A program made the translations under genes and the position numbers. Source: a virus (Duplodnaviria > Heunggongvirae > Uroviricota > Caudoviricetes). From it: a stretch of DNA of 44,055 bases. The stretch lies in the IMG/VR virus record IMGVR_UViG_2778261667_000008, positions 1 through 44,055 of that record; one strand, 5' to 3'. The notes under the pieces were generated by a model that was not told the origin of the DNA, ran no database searches, and saw nothing but the letters and a program-made list of their open reading frames with translations. This document shows positions 12,612-21,135 of the stretch, piece after piece (position 1 is the first letter of the stretch; the number at the start of each line of letters is the position of its first letter).

Positions 12612-13727
12612 TTAAATCCCTGCTTTTCTGAATACCTGTGCATCACGCTCACGGAGTTGCTTCAGCGTCAGCCATTCGCCTTTATCGGTGTAAAATTCAT
12701 CTGGCGACATACCACCATCCCGAATCAGCTTTGCCCGGGTTTCCCCCACAATCTGTTTTTGTCTGGTGTAAGGCTGACGCAAAAACCATTCCCTGTAGGT
12801 TGTATCTCCGGCTACCACGCCATCCATGCTGGCCCGCTCAGCCGGGGAAATATCACGAACATCAATACCCAGTTCCTTCGCTGATTTCAGAATGAACGTT
12901 TCCGTTGAGCGGCAGCAGAAATGAATTTTTCCCGGCCCCTGCAAATAAGGCACGCTGTGACCTACAGGTTTATTATCCAGCGTATATTTGAGGCGATCCC
13001 TGATTCGACATTGTGGCGTAGTACGATTATCAAGCGTTGATAACCATTGCTTACCCTTAATCAAATCATTATTCGCGCGTGCAAAACTCTCACGAGCAGT
13101 AGCAGCAAGATGTCCAACCGCTGTTTTTGCAATGCTGGCCGCATTAGCCCGGCTCATCTGCAATGCACCATCCTGAAATCCCTTACTGACATGTCCCCGA
13201 ATTTTTCTTGCGATCTGCTCATTGGTATCCCCCAGCAAAAAACCCTGACGCACCGTATTTGTTATGCGTCTGAGCCGATCCGCCTCAAGATCTGAGGCCC
13301 ACTCACTGAGCAGTCGTCCCTGGAATGGTCGCGCCATTGCAGCGGCGTAAAGTGCATCAGAAGAGATACCAACTAGAGGGTGAACATCAGCAACAAAATC
13401 AGGTAGCAGAGAATCAAACAGACTTAACTGATAACCAGCCTCATAAATTGCCAGCTCGTTCAGCTCTCCGGAGAGACTGGTAAACATGCTGTTAATAGCA
13501 GCGCGGTTAACCTCTCTGACACTCGCCAGAAGTGACTCCAGGCGCGTAACGGTAAAACTACCAGGATCGAGGCTGTCCAGTGCTACCAGCAGGCGAGCTG
13601 TAAGCTCCGCATCGCTGTCATTCAGTATTTTCACCATTCTGGCAGCCACACCAGTGCTATAGCGGGATATCCAGACTGCATGAGCAATTGATTCATCACG
13701 CAGCCGTTCATTCACGGTTTGCATCAT
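12612..13727 (-). CDS. Head morphogenesis protein (Mu F / SPP1 gp7-like minor head protein)
   Basis: 371 aa, downstream of portal gene. Confidence 0.55.
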   Translation of the reverse strand: MMQTVNERLRDESIAHAVWISRYSTGVAARMVKILNDSDAELTARLLVALDSLDPGSFTVTRLESLLASVREVNRAAINSMFTSLSGELNELAIYEAGYQLSLFDSLLPDFVADVHPLVGISSDALYAAAMARPFQGRLLSEWASDLEADRLRRITNTVRQGFLLGDTNEQIARKIRGHVSKGFQDGALQMSRANAASIAKTAVGHLAATARESFARANNDLIKGKQWLSTLDNRTTPQCRIRDRLKYTLDNKPVGHSVPYLQGPGKIHFCCRSTETFILKSAKELGIDVRDISPAERASMDGVVAGDTTYREWFLRQPYTRQKQIVGETRAKLIRDGGMSPDEFYTDKGEWLTLKQLRERDAQVFRKAGI

Positions 13728-15114
13728 TGATTTCCATCAGCATTACACTCTGATTTTTTAATTCATCGATCACTTCCTCTGGACGGGAATCCTGATCGAT
13801 AAATTTCAACGCCTGCAACACCCGAACCGCATCAATCTGACGTATATCACCGCCCTGACGCAATGACTGAACAGCCAGCGCGGAGGATGAGTCAAACACC
13901 TGGGCAGATACATCCAGTTCAGTGCGCACATCCACATTGCCACCGCAACTCTCTCCGATCCATTCCGCCATTATCTGGAGAATATTATCGAGGGCATCTT
14001 CGAGGGAGTTCGCCATTGTATAAAGCGGCGAGTGTTCCTGCATCCGCTCTTCATTAGTCTGATCAACAGATTTGGTGGATGTATTTTCAGCCCGCAGAAG
14101 TTTAGCGCCGGCATGACGCATCTGATTTTCCAGCTTCTCAAGTGATGTTTCGCCAGATTCTATCGCTGCGCCACTATGTTCAACATATTCGAGGCCATTT
14201 TTTGTTCTGTCCTCAAAAATCGTAGCGGTGGATGCACCAACCGTCAGTTCTTCATTCCTGTCCAGCCCGTAGGCCACCAGCAATGGAACGCGGGCAACAT
14301 GAAGAATATTGTCCTGCTCGCTCTGGCTTTGCCAGTGCTTGATATTCAGCAAGCCAAGATTAAGCAATGGCGGTGTACCACGCATAAACCCTGTTTTCTT
14401 CGTATACAGTGTTACCAGAGGAATATCATCACGGCTGGTATTCCATGACTCATGAAGCGTCCAGACAGATTCGCCATTAGTACCTTCGCTGCGTCGATAA
14501 ATTTCAACTCGACGGGGCATAATATGGCGGATCTGCTCCACCTTCTTCTGCCCGAAATCATCACCATCAATAATGATGACCTCTTTTATACGCAAATCAG
14601 TGAGAACAACTTTCCCTTTTTCAACTTTCGATTTCCATCCAATAACCTGGCGTGGATTCAGCATCGTAACGTACGGGCGACCACCGGCCGCGTTTTCATC
14701 GGCTTTTGTCCGAATCTCGTTCATATCCGTTCGTGGATAGTCCACCAGCGCATGTGCCACACCATACTGAAATGCGAGACTAAAAAATTGCTGCGCCCAC
14801 ACATCCAGTCGGCTCCCCTCCATGTCGATATTTTCTGCATATTCCCTGATTTTTTCCGGCGTTTCCTCACTCAATACTGTCGGCTCTGCAAATATGCGCC
14901 CAATATTTTGTTTGATGCTTTCTTCATACACAGGAAGTAGCGTAGCCACAGACAGGCGTTTTTTATAAGCGTCTTCATCTTCATTAGGCCATTTGGGGAG
15001 ATAATTTTCCCCCTGCCTGCGCATTTCAAGCGTACCGCCCATCAATGCGTCGTTAATATCCCACGCCTCCAGCATATCGTTATAGTCGAGGTTGGGTGTT
15101 GATATATCAGCCAT
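13708..15114 (-). CDS. Portal protein
   Basis: 468 aa, immediately downstream of terminase large subunit; acidic C-terminal region. Confidence 0.65.
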   Translation of the reverse strand: MADISTPNLDYNDMLEAWDINDALMGGTLEMRRQGENYLPKWPNEDEDAYKKRLSVATLLPVYEESIKQNIGRIFAEPTVLSEETPEKIREYAENIDMEGSRLDVWAQQFFSLAFQYGVAHALVDYPRTDMNEIRTKADENAAGGRPYVTMLNPRQVIGWKSKVEKGKVVLTDLRIKEVIIIDGDDFGQKKVEQIRHIMPRRVEIYRRSEGTNGESVWTLHESWNTSRDDIPLVTLYTKKTGFMRGTPPLLNLGLLNIKHWQSQSEQDNILHVARVPLLVAYGLDRNEELTVGASTATIFEDRTKNGLEYVEHSGAAIESGETSLEKLENQMRHAGAKLLRAENTSTKSVDQTNEERMQEHSPLYTMANSLEDALDNILQIMAEWIGESCGGNVDVRTELDVSAQVFDSSSALAVQSLRQGGDIRQIDAVRVLQALKFIDQDSRPEEVIDELKNQSVMLMEINDANRE

Positions 15115-15116
15115 AA

Positions 15117-16424
15117 TTAAATCCGAAGTGATGTGACTCTTCCGGTCGGTTTGACAATAGGGAATTGCTTAACGATGAAATAACCTCCGGCATCATTCGG
15201 GTGATCATTGCCAGATTTTTTATCAGGCTCCCCCTTATCATCCCAGACCTGTTGCTCCAGAGATTCGGCATATACCGGACAACGCTTCACATTAACTTTA
15301 TAGCGACGCTCACCATTGGCATTGCAGAACATTGCATTCATTGAGTTAACGCGATCTTTTACTGGCGGGTTCGAGCTGTTCACCACAACGTTAAAACCTG
15401 CCTGCTTAAGCTGGGCTATATCCGTCGTACTTGCGTTACTTGATTTTCTGGAATCTCCGGAAGCATCTGGATAAATATAAATCTCCCTCACTTTCCGGTA
15501 ATCATTCCCGTCATACAGCCAGAAGCGTTCTTTAATGATGCGGATCATATCCGGCGTATCGTAAGCATTGATGATTTCAGTTACCGCACATGGAAGCCCC
15601 AAACGCAGCACATGGACGATCCCCGCCATCTTTCCAACGTTAAAATCCATCCCAATATAAATCGGCTCCCCTGGCTGCTCCACTTCTTCGCAATTATTCA
15701 GTTTCCGGTCAAACTGATGGTAAACAGTACCACTTGTCAGGTTAGTAAACTGTCCTCGAAGATAGGCTTTAATCAGCTCTGGAGGGTATGATTCAAGAAG
15801 CGAAGGAATGTAATCTGCTGGCAGGTTCTTTTCATTATCGAAAGTAGATGCCTGCACCAGACCATACAGTGAGGCCAGCTCTGTTTTTTCACGCACGGCT
15901 TTAACAAACTGCTCGTAGACAAATTTGAATCCTTCCGGCGTGGTTGTAACGTCAATACCGTTGCGAAGTCCATCAATCTTATAACGCATACGCGCAATTA
16001 TCTTGCGCCACGCCGTTCTGGCTTTTTCCTTCGGCAAAATGTCCAGTTCATCCACCAGCGCATTACCAATTTTGAAACCGACGATCGTTTGTGGCTTCTC
16101 CATCGATCTGCAGATAGTGGTTCCCCGATACTGGCGTCCGTAATAAAAGTGAACCTCTTTATTTCCCTCATTAATTTTTACGTTCAATCCCCAGTCAGCA
16201 GCAACTTCTTCCACTGTAGGGTAAAAAATATCGCGAATTTGGGGATACGTTGGCGCAAAATATCCCTGATTTATACCTGGATGCTCCCAAATCCCCTTGC
16301 ATATGCCGCCACACCCAACCCATGTTTTGCCCGAGCCAAAACCAGCAATATAGGCTTTAAATTTATGGGGCATTGAAAGAAATCGCGCCTGAGGCACATT
16401 AAGCGTCGGAGAGATCATCTTCAT
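15117..16424 (-). CDS. Terminase large subunit
   Basis: Walker A AGFGSGKT near the N-terminus, size ~435 aa, nuclease-type C-terminal half; track start 16427 is GTG, ATGs at 16424 and 16418. Confidence 0.8.
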   Translation of the reverse strand: MKMISPTLNVPQARFLSMPHKFKAYIAGFGSGKTWVGCGGICKGIWEHPGINQGYFAPTYPQIRDIFYPTVEEVAADWGLNVKINEGNKEVHFYYGRQYRGTTICRSMEKPQTIVGFKIGNALVDELDILPKEKARTAWRKIIARMRYKIDGLRNGIDVTTTPEGFKFVYEQFVKAVREKTELASLYGLVQASTFDNEKNLPADYIPSLLESYPPELIKAYLRGQFTNLTSGTVYHQFDRKLNNCEEVEQPGEPIYIGMDFNVGKMAGIVHVLRLGLPCAVTEIINAYDTPDMIRIIKERFWLYDGNDYRKVREIYIYPDASGDSRKSSNASTTDIAQLKQAGFNVVVNSSNPPVKDRVNSMNAMFCNANGERRYKVNVKRCPVYAESLEQQVWDDKGEPDKKSGNDHPNDAGGYFIVKQFPIVKPTGRVTSLRI

Positions 16425-17493
16425 CACTCCTTAATCTGGCATCAACCACATTAATATTGATCGCCACAGGCTGGGGATGTTCATTATCCTCCACCGTTTC
16501 GATCTCTTTGCGCAGCTTCTGGTTTTCCATTCTGCGCCGTTCAATTTCCAGTTCCTGTAGCCGCTTATCTGCACATAATGCCCCGCCAGCAGAAAGCAAA
16601 CGCAACAATTCACGCCGGGCGGCAGCCTTATCCTCCAGCAGGATCTCAACACCGTATTTTCCGAGCTTTGACCCTGCATATAATTGCCGCGCATCCCCAT
16701 CAAGCAGTGTGGTATCAGCCATATAAAGCTGTCCCGTTCCCTCACCGCAGCACTTCGGGCAATCCGGATTGGGTATGGCGTTATCAACAAAGCCGAGGCC
16801 TCCATATTCCGGCTCGGGTTTACCATCTCTGGAGGCCTGTGCCGCAGCCTTATCGAATTCTGCAATATCACGCCACTGGTAGAGATGATTCTCGCCCCAG
16901 CAATAACGGCAGTTAACACGGCGAAATTGTGCCAACTGATTGGGGTCGGCCTGGACAATGGCCATCAACTGGCTCACCAGTAAATCCAGGTCTGCGGTAT
17001 AGCGTTTCTGGTACTGATTGCGGAAGTAGCTGATAGCACGATAAACCCTGGCATTTCTAAGCATACGGCTGGCGTTGCTGTTAGCTGTCGCACCTTGCCC
17101 CTCATAACCAGCCAGTCGGTATGCCTCTGTCGGCTTTTTCCCCTGAGCAACCAACATGGCGAATTTTGCCTGCTGGTCAGAAATACCGAATTCATCGGGG
17201 CAGAACGAAATTTCTTCCGTGTCCCCCTCAATCAGGAATGCATCGGATACAGCCTTTTTTTTCTGAGATTTTCCGTTCTGCCTTTGCGCAGTCTGCGCAG
17301 TTTTTTTTCGCGCACTTTTTTGCGCAGTTTTGCGCATTTCTTTCTGCGCATTTTTCGGAGTTTTTTTGATGTAACGACGGGCTGTTGCGTAGTTCAGTCC
17401 CCTTGCTTCACACCATGCCACCGGAGATATACCGGAGCGGGTGTATTCAGCAATATACTCCTGCTGCAACGCCCCCCAGTCCGGTCTGCTCAT
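16399..17493 (-). CDS. Terminase small subunit-like DNA-binding protein
   Basis: 364 aa; N-terminal HTH-like segment, lysine-rich low-complexity linker, Cys-rich C-terminal half (CRYCWGE...CPKCCGE); directly upstream of and overlapping the terminase large subunit. Confidence 0.5.
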   Translation of the reverse strand: MSRPDWGALQQEYIAEYTRSGISPVAWCEARGLNYATARRYIKKTPKNAQKEMRKTAQKSARKKTAQTAQRQNGKSQKKKAVSDAFLIEGDTEEISFCPDEFGISDQQAKFAMLVAQGKKPTEAYRLAGYEGQGATANSNASRMLRNARVYRAISYFRNQYQKRYTADLDLLVSQLMAIVQADPNQLAQFRRVNCRYCWGENHLYQWRDIAEFDKAAAQASRDGKPEPEYGGLGFVDNAIPNPDCPKCCGEGTGQLYMADTTLLDGDARQLYAGSKLGKYGVEILLEDKAAARRELLRLLSAGGALCADKRLQELEIERRRMENQKLRKEIETVEDNEHPQPVAININVVDARLRSDEDDLSDA

Positions 17494-17496
17494 CAG

Positions 17497-17748
17497 TTAG
17501 TCCTGATTTTTATCCACCCTGAGTAGTTCGCGCAGAGCAAAGGCATCCCCTTTTCTGGCAAGCTTAAACAATGCCGCTCGTAACTCGGCTTCACCTTTCG
17601 CTCTGCCCTTACGGATGGCCGCATAAAAATCTGTCATTGCTTCCCGATTTTCTTTCAGTCGGTTCAGATCAACATCCAGAACGTCAGCGATTTGTTGTGC
17701 AGTCATCCGGCACGCTGCCAGAGACTCGACTTTCGAATACGGAATCAT
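17497..17748 (-). CDS. Small HTH-type protein coupled to the terminase genes
   Basis: 83 aa; ATG at 17748 with GGGGGTGA SD; its stop and the next start form TAACTGATG. Confidence 0.35.
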   Translation of the reverse strand: MIPYSKVESLAACRMTAQQIADVLDVDLNRLKENREAMTDFYAAIRKGRAKGEAELRAALFKLARKGDAFALRELLRVDKNQD

Positions 17749-18640
17749 TTGTCACCCCCATTGATATGCAGGGTGTCTTCTTCCTGTATTTTTCGTGAAG
17801 GATTTTTACTGCAGCGTTGTTCCAGGTGACCTGATGGTGAATGCGTTTATGGCTGGCACCCATCAGTGAGATTTTTACGCACGACGGCGAATACATGACG
17901 GAGTAAAAACTTTTAACGTAGGTTCCGGAATCCAGATACAGCTCGGTCATTCCGCCGCTGTTTTTCTGCGTCTGTTTCTGCCCTAACTGGACAGCACCGA
18001 TCGTCATAAACAATTCACCACAGCGACCGAGATTCGTGTACGTATTCACATCCTCGTTAATGCGCCCCATGAATGAGAACGGTCGATCAACCGAACAGAT
18101 AAAGCTGTTCATTGCCTTGCGTTTCACCCACGAAGCATGGCCGCCATTGTCACCAAGAAAATCCCCGCCCTGCGACATAGCGATGGAAAGCGCGGGTATT
18201 GATTCGTAATACGCCAGCATTTCAGAAAGGATCGCATCCAGTTTCCTTATCGGGAAATAGGCCTGGTCATAGTTGCGATCCACCCGAAACTGGAACTCGT
18301 GATAATCATCATCGAGCTGAATGAAGTATTTACACCCGACCAGTTTTGCCAGGTCGAAACAGGCATTACGGGCGTAAAAAATTGAGCGGCGGTCACCAAA
18401 ATTATCGGCTTCGTCAAAACGACTGGCAATATCGGCTTTGGAAAATACCAGCACCTGTTCACCAAATTCAGCCATGTACTGATGCCGTGTCTTATCTTCA
18501 TCATCAACAACGATAAAAATTTTCCCGGTATAGCCAGCACGACGCAACGTCCGGTAAGTCAGAACTTTGTCCGGTCGCCCGTGAGTCAGAATAAAGGCGC
18601 AAAAATCATCACGCATATTCCTCCTCCTCCTCCCCGCCAT
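17684..18640 (-). CDS. Hypothetical 318-aa protein (possible nucleotide-sugar-transferase-like fold; function unknown)
   Basis: ATG at 18640 with GGAG SD; acidic motifs FIVVDDEDK and IQLDDDYHEF; follows the ParB-like gene and precedes the terminase genes. Confidence 0.5.
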   Translation of the reverse strand: MAGRRRRNMRDDFCAFILTHGRPDKVLTYRTLRRAGYTGKIFIVVDDEDKTRHQYMAEFGEQVLVFSKADIASRFDEADNFGDRRSIFYARNACFDLAKLVGCKYFIQLDDDYHEFQFRVDRNYDQAYFPIRKLDAILSEMLAYYESIPALSIAMSQGGDFLGDNGGHASWVKRKAMNSFICSVDRPFSFMGRINEDVNTYTNLGRCGELFMTIGAVQLGQKQTQKNSGGMTELYLDSGTYVKSFYSVMYSPSCVKISLMGASHKRIHHQVTWNNAAVKILHEKYRKKTPCISMGVTNDSVFESRVSGSVPDDCTTNR

Positions 18641-19403
18641 GCATGATCTCCACCATGCGCTGCGTCATTCGGACAAATCCATTTTCAATAGCCTGCTGAT
18701 AATCAATGATCACCAGCGCCGACTCCTCGAAAAGGCACTGAATTTCAGCGGGGGCATGAGCGTAATAGTCCGCAATTCTGCTGAAATTAAACACTGTGTG
18801 ACGTTCTGCCGCACACAGGAGGAATTTCTCAATATCAGGATCAAGGGACGCCGAACGTATCCGGCTGATCAGCTCCTGAGTTTTCGTATCGTCGTACAGT
18901 TCACTGATATCCGGTTTACCGCCCGACGGCTCATAAACAGGCGTATCAATTTTCGTCGTATACGGCTCCTCCTCATTTCCTGTACCGGGCAAAACATCCG
19001 TCAACAGTTCATCAATTTCTGTCGGGATGAAGCCTGTCAGGGAGACATCAAAATCAGCATTGATTAGGTCCGACAGCTCCATCCGCAACAGATCTTCATC
19101 CCAGCCAGCATTCATCGGCAGGCGATTATCTGCCAGGCGGTACGCCTTTTTCTGCTCATCCGTCAGGCCAGACAGAACAATGACCGGAACAGAATCCATT
19201 TTGAGCATTTCAGCCGCCATAACACGACCGTGACCCGCAATAATTTCGCCCTTTTCGTCAATCAGCACCGGATTAGTCCAGCCGAATTGCTTAATACTTT
19301 CTACCAGTTGTGCCACCTGCTCAGTACTGTGCGTCCTGGCGTTGTGCGCATACGGTGACAATTCTTGTAATGGGCGATAGACTATCTTTAATTTCTCGCT
19401 CAT
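18609..19403 (-). CDS. ynaK: ParB-like nuclease domain protein
   Basis: 264 aa; N-terminal ParB/Srx-type segment (IDEKGEIIAGHGRVMAAEM...); acidic C-terminus; adjacent to trkG as ynaK is in K-12 Rac. Confidence 0.6.
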   Translation of the reverse strand: MSEKLKIVYRPLQELSPYAHNARTHSTEQVAQLVESIKQFGWTNPVLIDEKGEIIAGHGRVMAAEMLKMDSVPVIVLSGLTDEQKKAYRLADNRLPMNAGWDEDLLRMELSDLINADFDVSLTGFIPTEIDELLTDVLPGTGNEEEPYTTKIDTPVYEPSGGKPDISELYDDTKTQELISRIRSASLDPDIEKFLLCAAERHTVFNFSRIADYYAHAPAEIQCLFEESALVIIDYQQAIENGFVRMTQRMVEIMHGGEEEEEYA

Positions 19404-19540: not shown

Positions 19541-20998
19541 TTAGGAGCGCCAAAAAAAACCTGAAAACAATATAATAACAGGATAAATTTCAAGGCGACC
19601 AAGAATCATAGCTATGCACATTAAATATTTTGCAATGTCATTAAGCACTCCGAATGACGATGCAGTAGCCCCAAAACCTAATCCCATATTATTAATACAT
19701 GCAGCCACTGTTGCAAATGATGTAAGAAAATCATATCCCATACCATTTAACACCAGTATAAAAAACACCGTGAAGAGAGTATAAAGAAAAAAGAAACTCC
19801 ATACAGACCTCATTACACGATCTGTAACTATCTTCCCTCCTACATTTACACTCAACAACGCTCTGGGATGAGAAAGTTGATTTATCTCGTGTTTGCTTTG
19901 TTTGAAAAGTATAAGAAATCGAAGTGACTTAATTCCACCACAGGTTGAACCGATACATCCCCCAAAGAAACTTGACAACAGCAAAAACACTATCGTGTGC
20001 GTGGGCCAGTTTGCATAATCCTGCGTAGCTAAACCATTATCAGTGAGCATGGAGCTGGCAAGAAAAAACGAATGAATAAAACTTCCATGCAAGTCATACA
20101 TACCTATATGCCAGACCTGGAAAGAGGTAACAATGATCACCCCTAAGGCTATTAATAGAAAGAAACGAAGTTCAATATCTCTGATTAAAGGTTTTATCGT
20201 TTTTCTGCTAATAACAATATACCAAAGAGTGAAGTTGAAAGCCGATAGCAGGGAAAAAGAACCAGCCACCAGCTCAACCAAATAGTTATTAAAATATCCG
20301 ATACTCTCGCTATGAGTTGAGAAACCACCAAGCGAAACTGTGGAAATCCCGTGACAAATAGCATCAAACAAAGGCATTCCTGCAAGTCTATAACAGACAA
20401 TACAAGCAATACCTAATAAAGAATAAGTTATCCACAGTGTCCGTGACGTATCGGCCAGGCGGGGAGTGAGTTTGTCATCCTTAAATGGCCCCGGCATTTC
20501 TGACTGATAAAGCTTTGCACCACCAATACCCAATAATGGCAATACTGCAACCGCCAGAACAATAACTCCTAAACCACCTATAAAATTTAACTGTGACCGA
20601 TAGTACAAATATGCCCGAGGTAATGAACTAACATCATCAATTACAGTTGCTCCTGTTGTTGTTATTCCAGAAACCCCTTCAAACAGAGCATCAATGAACG
20701 TTAAATTAAGTTCTGAGTCAATCCATAAAGGGAATGCACTAATAACAGAAAACAAAATCCAAAACATTACAATTATAATAAACCCATCACGGGTACGTAA
20801 TTGAATGCCAGATTTCTTAGTTGTATACCACGCTCCGCCACCAATGCAAAAAAATATAACGAAAGTTATAAAGAAAACGAACAGGCTTTTTTCTTTATAA
20901 AACAATGCTACAACCATTGGTGGCAACATTGAAAGACTATAGAGCCAAACCAGGAACCCACACATATGAGTAACAACTCTTACATGAGATGTATTCAT
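19541..20998 (-). CDS. trkG: TrkH/TrkG-family potassium uptake membrane protein
   Basis: Polytopic membrane protein; sequence from MNTSHVRVVTHMCGFLVWLYSLSM... matches my recollection of K-12 TrkG; first ATG at 20998 (the track start at 21016 is TTG); AT-rich gene. Confidence 0.9.
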   Translation of the reverse strand: MNTSHVRVVTHMCGFLVWLYSLSMLPPMVVALFYKEKSLFVFFITFVIFFCIGGGAWYTTKKSGIQLRTRDGFIIIVMFWILFSVISAFPLWIDSELNLTFIDALFEGVSGITTTGATVIDDVSSLPRAYLYYRSQLNFIGGLGVIVLAVAVLPLLGIGGAKLYQSEMPGPFKDDKLTPRLADTSRTLWITYSLLGIACIVCYRLAGMPLFDAICHGISTVSLGGFSTHSESIGYFNNYLVELVAGSFSLLSAFNFTLWYIVISRKTIKPLIRDIELRFFLLIALGVIIVTSFQVWHIGMYDLHGSFIHSFFLASSMLTDNGLATQDYANWPTHTIVFLLLSSFFGGCIGSTCGGIKSLRFLILFKQSKHEINQLSHPRALLSVNVGGKIVTDRVMRSVWSFFFLYTLFTVFFILVLNGMGYDFLTSFATVAACINNMGLGFGATASSFGVLNDIAKYLMCIAMILGRLEIYPVIILFSGFFWRS

Positions 20999-21135
20999 AT
21001 CTAAATATTCTTTCAATTATAACCACCTTGCTGCAATATTATGATTATACTGTATAAAATTTAACTCCTCTTAGATTTTACTTCACTGTTCCTTATGAAA
21101 CAATCATCAAAATGAATCATATTGTAGTTAAGATT

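Follow-up and report, generated by a model that had tools for sequence, protein, structure and literature searches.

A TGCGCA hexamer array inside the small-terminase gene of a Rac-like Escherichia coli prophage as a probable P1-like packaging recognition element

The question raised by a short segment of the window (the whole 44,055-nucleotide stretch of the tailed-phage record IMGVR_UViG_2778261667_000008 in IMG/VR; Caudoviricetes) is whether six closely spaced GCGCA-containing hexamers, which lie inside a gene for the small terminase subunit (TerS), are a signal in the DNA or the codons of a repetitive, lysine-rich peptide. The window is an intact Rac-like Escherichia coli prophage with trkG, a lambda-like tail, a P22-type coat gene, and recE/racC/kilR, and its TerS gene is found in 906 of 5,426 complete E. 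coli genomes; E. coli C8 (NZ_CP010125) has a prophage 99.9% identical to it. An earlier reading of the letters alone (the sequence-only reading) had offered two possibilities, a site for packaging or terminase binding and a basic linker encoded by the repeat, and the first of these proposals is supported here by conservation of the DNA word in three reading frames, by co-variation of the word with a helix of a helix-turn-helix (HTH) domain in TerS, and by likeness to the hexamers in the pacA gene of phage P1. The array is therefore probably the sequence-specific recognition element of the prophage's packaging-initiation (pac) site, similar to that of P1, and because of this comparative evidence, from which we infer its packaging function, the pac reading is preferred over the basic linker.

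The positions and spacings that the sequence-only reading had given (a GCGCA motif six times in 66 bp, 9–15 bp apart, with T-runs between) are reproduced, the hexamers following each other at start-to-start distances of 9, 15, 12, 10, and 14 bp and being separated on the + strand by T-runs of 4–8 (Table 1). Its count of six holds if CGCGCA at 17309 is taken as a degenerate copy, the other five being exact copies of TGCGCA. The whole window is not enriched in this word (22 copies vs. 17.4 ± 4 expected), but 5 of the 22 fall within 66 bp (scan-statistic approximation, P = 6.6e-7), and a cluster of five was reached in 0 of 200,000 uniform placements. The array corresponds to nt 144–209 of the TerS gene and encodes aa 48–70, the first half of a linker, and translation of the minus-strand open reading frame (ORF) gives, as the sequence-only reading had written, the lysine-rich segment KKTPKNAQKEMRKTAQKSARKKTAQTAQRQNGK at aa 43–75. 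One hexamer, within ATG CGC AAA (Met-Arg-Lys), is out of frame relative to the other copies. The gene has no further cluster, whether of exact copies or of copies with one mismatch, its lone other TGCGCA lying at 16509, and an integration host factor (IHF) site was not searched for.

Comparison with relatives makes it very likely that the hexamers are functional DNA elements. The TerS proteins of Klebsiella phages have only 43% identity to that of the window and a linker ∼24 aa shorter, yet their genes contain six TGCGCA within 58 bp, which are read as TAQ, TAQ, PAQ, LRT, TAQ, and CAE and thus in all three frames. With one genome taken per species, ∼35 diverse species carry four to six TGCGCA at the same gene position (from about nt 138), and nearly every TerS with the same N-terminal domain carries the array; TerS genes ∼40% identical keep it in Klebsiella, Serratia, Buttiauxella, Citrobacter, Enterobacter, Raoultella, Leclercia, Kluyvera, Pantoea, and others. 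The word can be read as xAQ, [LMV]R, or CA, and among 166 hexamers in 33 diverse loci frame 3 is used by 126, frame 2 by 31, and frame 1 by 9. When synonymous codons were resampled with the protein held fixed, window codons 41–90 contained 5 TGCGCA vs. 0.8 expected (P = 0.0002), and each of the 33 loci showed an excess (4–6 observed vs. 0.3–0.9 expected, P ≤ 0.002 in every locus), while the same resampling of the proven P1 pac hexamers as a positive control gave 8 vs. 3.8 expected (P = 4e-4). Among 39 distinct E. coli alleles, codons 46–60 have a synonymous diversity of 0.003 and a non-synonymous diversity of 0.063, a relation that is reversed over most of the remaining gene (synonymous mostly 0.06–0.27, non-synonymous mostly below 0.05).

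In these prophage sequences, which are not phylogenetically independent, conservation of the repeat is consequently at the DNA level rather than the protein level, since word, copy number, and the use of three frames are kept. Because the hexamers are conserved as DNA in three frames, exceed the codon-resampled expectation, and coincide with low synonymous diversity, the lysine-rich peptide is best regarded as a by-product of the DNA word and its A-rich spacers and not as the target of selection. The basic linker of the sequence-only reading is thus real as a peptide but fails as an account of what is selected, as linker chemistry differs between hexamer classes. Since the array lies in a segment encoding a disordered linker, the word would dictate the peptide (Ala-Gln, Met/Leu/Val-Arg, Cys-Ala) at little cost to the protein.

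The type of hexamer, as judged from the compared sequences, tracks the recognition helix of the N-terminal HTH of TerS and not the TerS core, and this HTH quite likely reads the hexamers. In the AlphaFold model of the window protein, the domain consists of three helices (H6-20, H24-31, and the recognition helix H35-41, YATARRY); its top Foldseek matches in the PDB are all HTH domains, none of them significant, and neither sequence nor fold searches of the PDB returned a significant relative for TerS or its N-terminal domain. Proteins with the helix ...TARR[YH]IKK are accompanied by 4–8 copies of TGCGCA on Terminase_2/CRYCWG cores, on a 933W-type core (L129), and on other cores (L122, L123), and ARRY or ARRH helices on a 933W-like backbone (L229, L144) likewise go with TGCGCA. 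The helix ...TAKRYIK[IV], whose sole change in the recognition helix relative to the window class is Arg39 to Lys, is found with 4–7 copies of TGCGAA(T)/TTCGCA, often as the 12-bp palindrome TGCGAATTCGCA, on two core types, namely the 933W type (Klebsiella phage RothC, L137; also L125, L127, and L128) and the Terminase_2 type (Yersinia phage vB_YenM_29.18, L138). These TGCGAAT (class-B) arrays encode the peptide ANSQ in an Ala-Asn-Ser-rich linker. A different N-terminal HTH (L095, L111) is coupled to GGGGCA/TGCCCC on a Terminase_2/CRYCWG core, and homologues of the core without the N-terminal HTH from Acinetobacter, Collimonas, and Moraxellaceae (L114–L119) have no cluster. A site for a host factor was rejected as an explanation, since phages in the same hosts have different words depending on their HTH.

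The TerS of 933W and other Shiga toxin (Stx) phages (phrog_370) belongs to the same N-terminal HTH family (tblastn matches over aa 1–43 to 1–74) and has the same layout, with the repeat array placed in the linker behind the HTH, but it differs from the window protein in its helix (...TARTRIKM), in its word ([CT]GATCAT, four copies at 12-bp spacing), in the acidic His-rich peptide encoded (IDHEIDHKTDHEIDHD), and in its 933W-type core. The repeats of 933W (AF125520, L136) lie at locus nt 1642–1683, equal to nt 142–183 of the TerS gene L0112, and each contains a Dam site, as does the HEX4 cluster of P1; no earlier description of the Stx-phage GATCAT array was found in the literature searched.

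When IMG/VR was scanned without bias for three TGCGCA copies separated by 1–10 bp, at least 120 loci were returned. About 76–79 of the 120 loci listed sit at the array position of a TerS gene: 64 have the HTH motif in frame just upstream of the array, ∼12 more are variant or truncated copies of the module, and three have another TerS-type HTH; the remaining loci listed are unrelated tandem repeats or intergenic operators. TGCGCA triplets outside TerS were considered as pac mimics of satellites and rejected, the locus with intergenic pairs beside a tRNA-like segment (L197) resembling an ordinary phage fragment. Three TerS-like proteins from IMG/VR (L143, L223, L244) have a different, common N-terminal HTH (DW..IE.DY.AG.LS.R.IA...) followed by 3–6 TGCGCA, and the layout of an HTH followed by its own array may be more general than the window TerS family. 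P0223 is an ARRY protein whose linker contains little Ala-Gln, and a search of IMG/VR for its relatives found none.

These combinations also allow a more tentative proposal, in which HTH and array form a portable “packaging-specificity cassette” that has been shuffled between unrelated TerS cores and whose word could be read from the recognition helix. RRY would then specify TGCGCA, KRY TGCGAAT, and RTR GATCAT, with the Arg-to-Lys change accompanying the loss of one G:C pair, and the disordered linker would largely be a coding-tolerant place that keeps the pac site beside the gene of its reader.

The nearest experimentally defined system is phage P1, in which TGATCA/G hexamers (HEX4/HEX3) inside pacA are recognized by the PacA/PacB pacase and synonymous recoding of the hexamers reduced packaging ∼9-fold (PMC10028697). 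The P1 hexamers start 194 nt into pacA, just after the part that encodes the HTH, and lie on either side of the mapped cleavage sites. P1 and the window are alike in having 4–8 palindromic TG-NN-CA hexamers at irregular spacings of 7–15 bp, placed inside the small-terminase gene just downstream of an HTH segment with the helix NxxTARRY[IL], and in both the hexamers fall in more than one reading frame and are more numerous than the encoded protein would demand. Profile matches connect phrog_1711, whose founding member is P1 PacA, with the window TerS N-terminus (E = 2.6e-4) and with 933W TerS (3e-5), and PacA with the 933W family phrog_370 (1.9e-4). In hhalign, the HTHs align residue for residue (W6...NYATARRYIKK with P1 W3...NPNTARRYLRAF) at E = 0.0016 but with a probability of only 16%, and pairwise BLASTP of window TerS with PacA gives E = 0.11, so that the sequence comparison points weakly to homology of the two HTHs. 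The window word differs from TGATCA/G in lacking GATC and hence a Dam-methylation switch, the remainder of the window TerS is a Terminase_2 core unrelated to PacA, and its large terminase subunit (TerL) is of the Terminase_6 type and not PacB. Because word, clustering, TerS core, and TerL differ, the window array would be a P1-type variant with a new hexamer and not a strict member of the P1 type.

In P22, with its 22-bp site in gene 3, and in SPP1, whose pacL/pacR boxes surround gene 1, the signal also lies in or beside the TerS gene and is recognized by TerS (PMC9611059). The P22 site is single and asymmetric, and SPP1 makes multiple contacts flanking the cut with a specificity that is poorly defined in vitro; unlike the window family, both lack an additional, dedicated HTH paired with a hexamer array that matches it and changes along with it among relatives.

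The closest named relatives of the window TerL are from Kagunavirus and Jersey-like siphoviruses, which are headful packagers. In the mechanism proposed, TerS would oligomerize through its Terminase_2 core, with each subunit carrying its N-terminal HTH on a flexible tether of ∼55 residues, and several HTHs of one oligomer would bind the six hexamers, which lie ∼12 bp apart over 66 bp with A/T tracts between them. Such multivalent binding could lead to the specific capture of phage concatemer DNA, after which TerL would be recruited, would cut nearby, and would package by the headful.

Other explanations account for parts of these observations. That the repeat exists only at the peptide level, as a lysine-rich low-complexity linker produced by a recent 12/36-bp duplication in which the DNA word has no function, agrees with the periods of 12, 24, and 36 bp that Tandem Repeats Finder reports for the array region and with the K/A/Q-rich low-complexity sequence, which is predicted to be disordered. 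This view is very improbable and largely refuted by the three reading frames, by the persistence of word and copy number across genera while spacers and linker length diverge, by the codon resampling of the 33 loci, by a non-synonymous diversity in the linker much greater than the synonymous one, and by a linker chemistry that is basic in the window class but acidic in 933W. A role of nucleic-acid structure, either as three tandem hairpins in the terS mRNA that affect translation or stability or as terminators of antisense transcription, is somewhat less improbable but still quite unlikely. A 101-nt region does fold as three hairpins (−29.5 kcal/mol, z = −4.2 vs. shuffles; z = −4.1 as single-stranded DNA), and there are three terminator-like sites at 17284–17350, on the + strand only, made of hexamer pairs followed by T-runs; strong folding is, however, automatic when any self-complementary hexamer is repeated. 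The commonest copy number among relatives is odd (five), Klebsiella-type arrays with two hexamers 1 nt apart lack the T-runs after the stems, and the contiguous 12-bp palindromes of class-B arrays cannot form hairpins and are classic duplex binding sites. Furthermore, neither TGTGCA nor TGCACA is a compensatory polymorphism, a structural role would leave the switch of word between HTH helices unexplained, and Rfam gives no match (best 19.7 bits vs. a gathering score of 80). The terminator-like hairpins of the + strand are probably a side effect of palindromic words placed between A-rich spacers.

Selection on the DNA and linkage to the HTH would fit any function that depends on the HTH and the array together, and TerS or another phage protein could bind the hexamers for regulation, for instance in autoregulation of the terminase by a roadblock in its own gene, with the array lying within 210 nt of the start of the first packaging gene. 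Regulation of this kind is unlikely, although less so than the accounts above: P1 PacA and its hexamers, the only relative of the module studied experimentally, act in pac cleavage (PMC10028697), six to nine sites exceed the usual need of an operator, and in every case the module is joined to a TerS core, with no instance on a stand-alone regulator. DNA modification or restriction, with the array as its target or decoy, was considered because TGCGCA contains GCGC and a glycosyltransferase of the TET-associated (TAGT) family and a ParB_N protein are encoded 200–1900 bp upstream. It is the least probable of the alternatives and can nearly be dismissed, as the array persists in Klebsiella and other phages in which these neighbors are absent, as no TET/JBP gene or methyltransferase gene, for cytosine or otherwise, is annotated in the prophage, and as the motif varies with the TerS HTH and not with the glycosyltransferase and ParB_N genes.

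Several points nevertheless weigh against a P1-like pac site read by the N-terminal HTH. Literature searches returned no virion-end, coverage-step, or binding data for phages with a TerS of the window type. The pac site of the LF82 ‘Gally’ prophage was mapped by virome coverage inside its termS (PMC9928086), but Gally was rejected as a pac precedent, its TerS being a 140-aa Sf6-like protein of a different family. The low synonymous diversity in E. coli spans codons 1–75 and could partly reflect a recent recombinational sweep, and polymorphism of hexamers 2, 4, and 6 indicates that not all six copies are required. The window has one cluster of six, whereas P1 has two (4+3) ∼90 bp apart that flank an IHF site and the cut, and homology to PacA is weakened by the low hhalign probability. 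As for co-variation, there are only about two or three independent switches of word and helix, the array adjoins the HTH-coding DNA, so that co-inheritance alone yields part of the association between HTH and motif, and P1 combines an ARRY helix with the word TGATCA, which means that the mapping from helix to motif is no simple code. One lineage with an ARRY HTH (L261–L263 in IMG/VR), whose KAKAK linker is very short and whose core is 933W-like, has no array either in the linker or within 200 nt upstream. The matching phage records (vB_EcoS-*, SPF_0923, RothC, phi419) have ends that fall elsewhere than at the array and are apparently arbitrary.

Table 1. Coordinates of the hexamer array, the TerS gene, and neighboring packaging genes in the window (hexamers numbered in coding order; start positions as read on the + strand; allele counts from E. 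coli)
Feature	Position	Strand	Encoded residues or family	Remarks
Hexamer array, palindromic: five TGCGCA and one degenerate CGCGCA	17285..17350	.		Proposed recognition part of the pac site
Hexamer 1, TGCGCA	17345..17350		N48-A49-Q50, starts at codon position 3	Invariant in 39 alleles
Hexamer 2, TGCGCA	17331..17336		M53-R54-K55, starts at codon position 2	TGTGCA in 11/39 alleles
Hexamer 3, TGCGCA	17321..17326		T56-A57-Q58	Invariant in 39 alleles
Hexamer 4, degenerate: CGCGCA on + strand, TGCGCG on coding strand	17309..17314		S60-A61-R62	TGCGCA (SAQ) in 29/39 alleles
Hexamer 5, TGCGCA	17294..17299		T65-A66-Q67	Kept in 38/39 alleles
Hexamer 6, TGCGCA	17285..17290		T68-A69-Q70	TGCACA in 26/39 alleles
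TerS ORF, 364 aa	16399..17493	-	Terminase_2 PF03592, E=1.3e-8; phrog_51, E=6e-75	RefSeq ‘terminase small subunit’
TerS aa 1–44, extra N-terminal three-helix HTH	17362..17493	-		Proposed hexamer reader; AlphaFold predicted local distance difference test (pLDDT) 72–89
TerS aa 45–98, predicted disordered linker	17200..17361	-		5' half is the hexamer array; pLDDT below 50 at aa 57–94
TerS aa 99–364	16399..17199	-	Terminase_2-type HTH and oligomerisation core	CxxC...CxxC insert; C-terminal tail
TerL	15117..16427	-	Terminase_6N and 6C nuclease	Presumed cutting and motor partner
Portal protein	13708..15114	-	DUF4055	Next gene of the packaging module

The gene that contains the array had been called small-terminase-like, and this identity is upheld by the Terminase_2 and phrog_51 matches and the RefSeq annotation, with the PF03592 match (aa 122–321) scoring 36 bits, above the curated cut-off of 26.1. 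The gene lies directly upstream of that for TerL in the order TerS-TerL-portal. A second confident HTH-containing block in the AlphaFold model, at aa 99–160 (pLDDT 75–91), forms the start of the Terminase_2 core. The linker shows indels and compensated frameshifts among database TerS variants. In variants P0008 and P0019, compensated frameshifts are confined to the linker (aligned aa 45–80) beside A-runs, and either these are homopolymer assembly errors or the amino acid sequence of the linker is dispensable. In E. coli CUWW10 (NZ_CP182145, L006, locus 1788–2501), an IS1A is inserted exactly at the edge of the array (window ∼17349) and truncates TerS after the HTH; the array, rich in A/T tracts, may be an IS1 target.

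Immediately upstream of TerS, an 83-aa ORF (17497–17748, minus strand) matches positions 145–218 of the 319 positions of phrog_309 (E = 8e-23), a different small-terminase family, and could be either a remnant or a DNA-binding protein with an accessory role. This ORF was rejected as the binder of the hexamers, as it is missing upstream of Klebsiella TerS genes that retain the array. Between trkG and the terminase genes, the window further encodes the TAGT glycosyltransferase (PF20691, E = 6e-35; RefSeq ‘GREB1-related protein’) and the protein with a ParB N-terminal domain, in a region covering 17684–18640 and 18609–19403 (both minus strand). The potassium transporter gene trkG (19541–21016, minus strand) is carried as cargo, with the lysis genes on one side and the packaging module on the other, as it is in Rac of K-12.

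Recognition of viral DNA by small terminases has been described as unclear and controversial, and the in vitro binding of P22, Sf6, SF6, and SPP1 as weak or non-specific (PMC9611059). The TerS family described here is a tractable case, with a dedicated HTH, a short exact word repeated 4–9 times, and natural specificity variants that are one to two residues and one to two base pairs apart on interchangeable cores. Stx phages contain related modules, as do prophages of Klebsiella, Yersinia, and Enterobacter, and if the proposal of a portable cassette is true, this would be the first small-terminase family with a pac specificity predictable from sequence, covering hundreds of enterobacterial prophages including Shiga-toxin phages. 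The array would predict where in situ packaging starts and hence the lateral transduction of flanking host genes, and a fragment of 60–100 bp could act as a portable packaging signal for phagemids and transduction tools, as P1 pac already does. The locus would also show overlapping codes in a clean form, the amino acid sequence of a disordered protein segment being set by a DNA signal that acts in cis.

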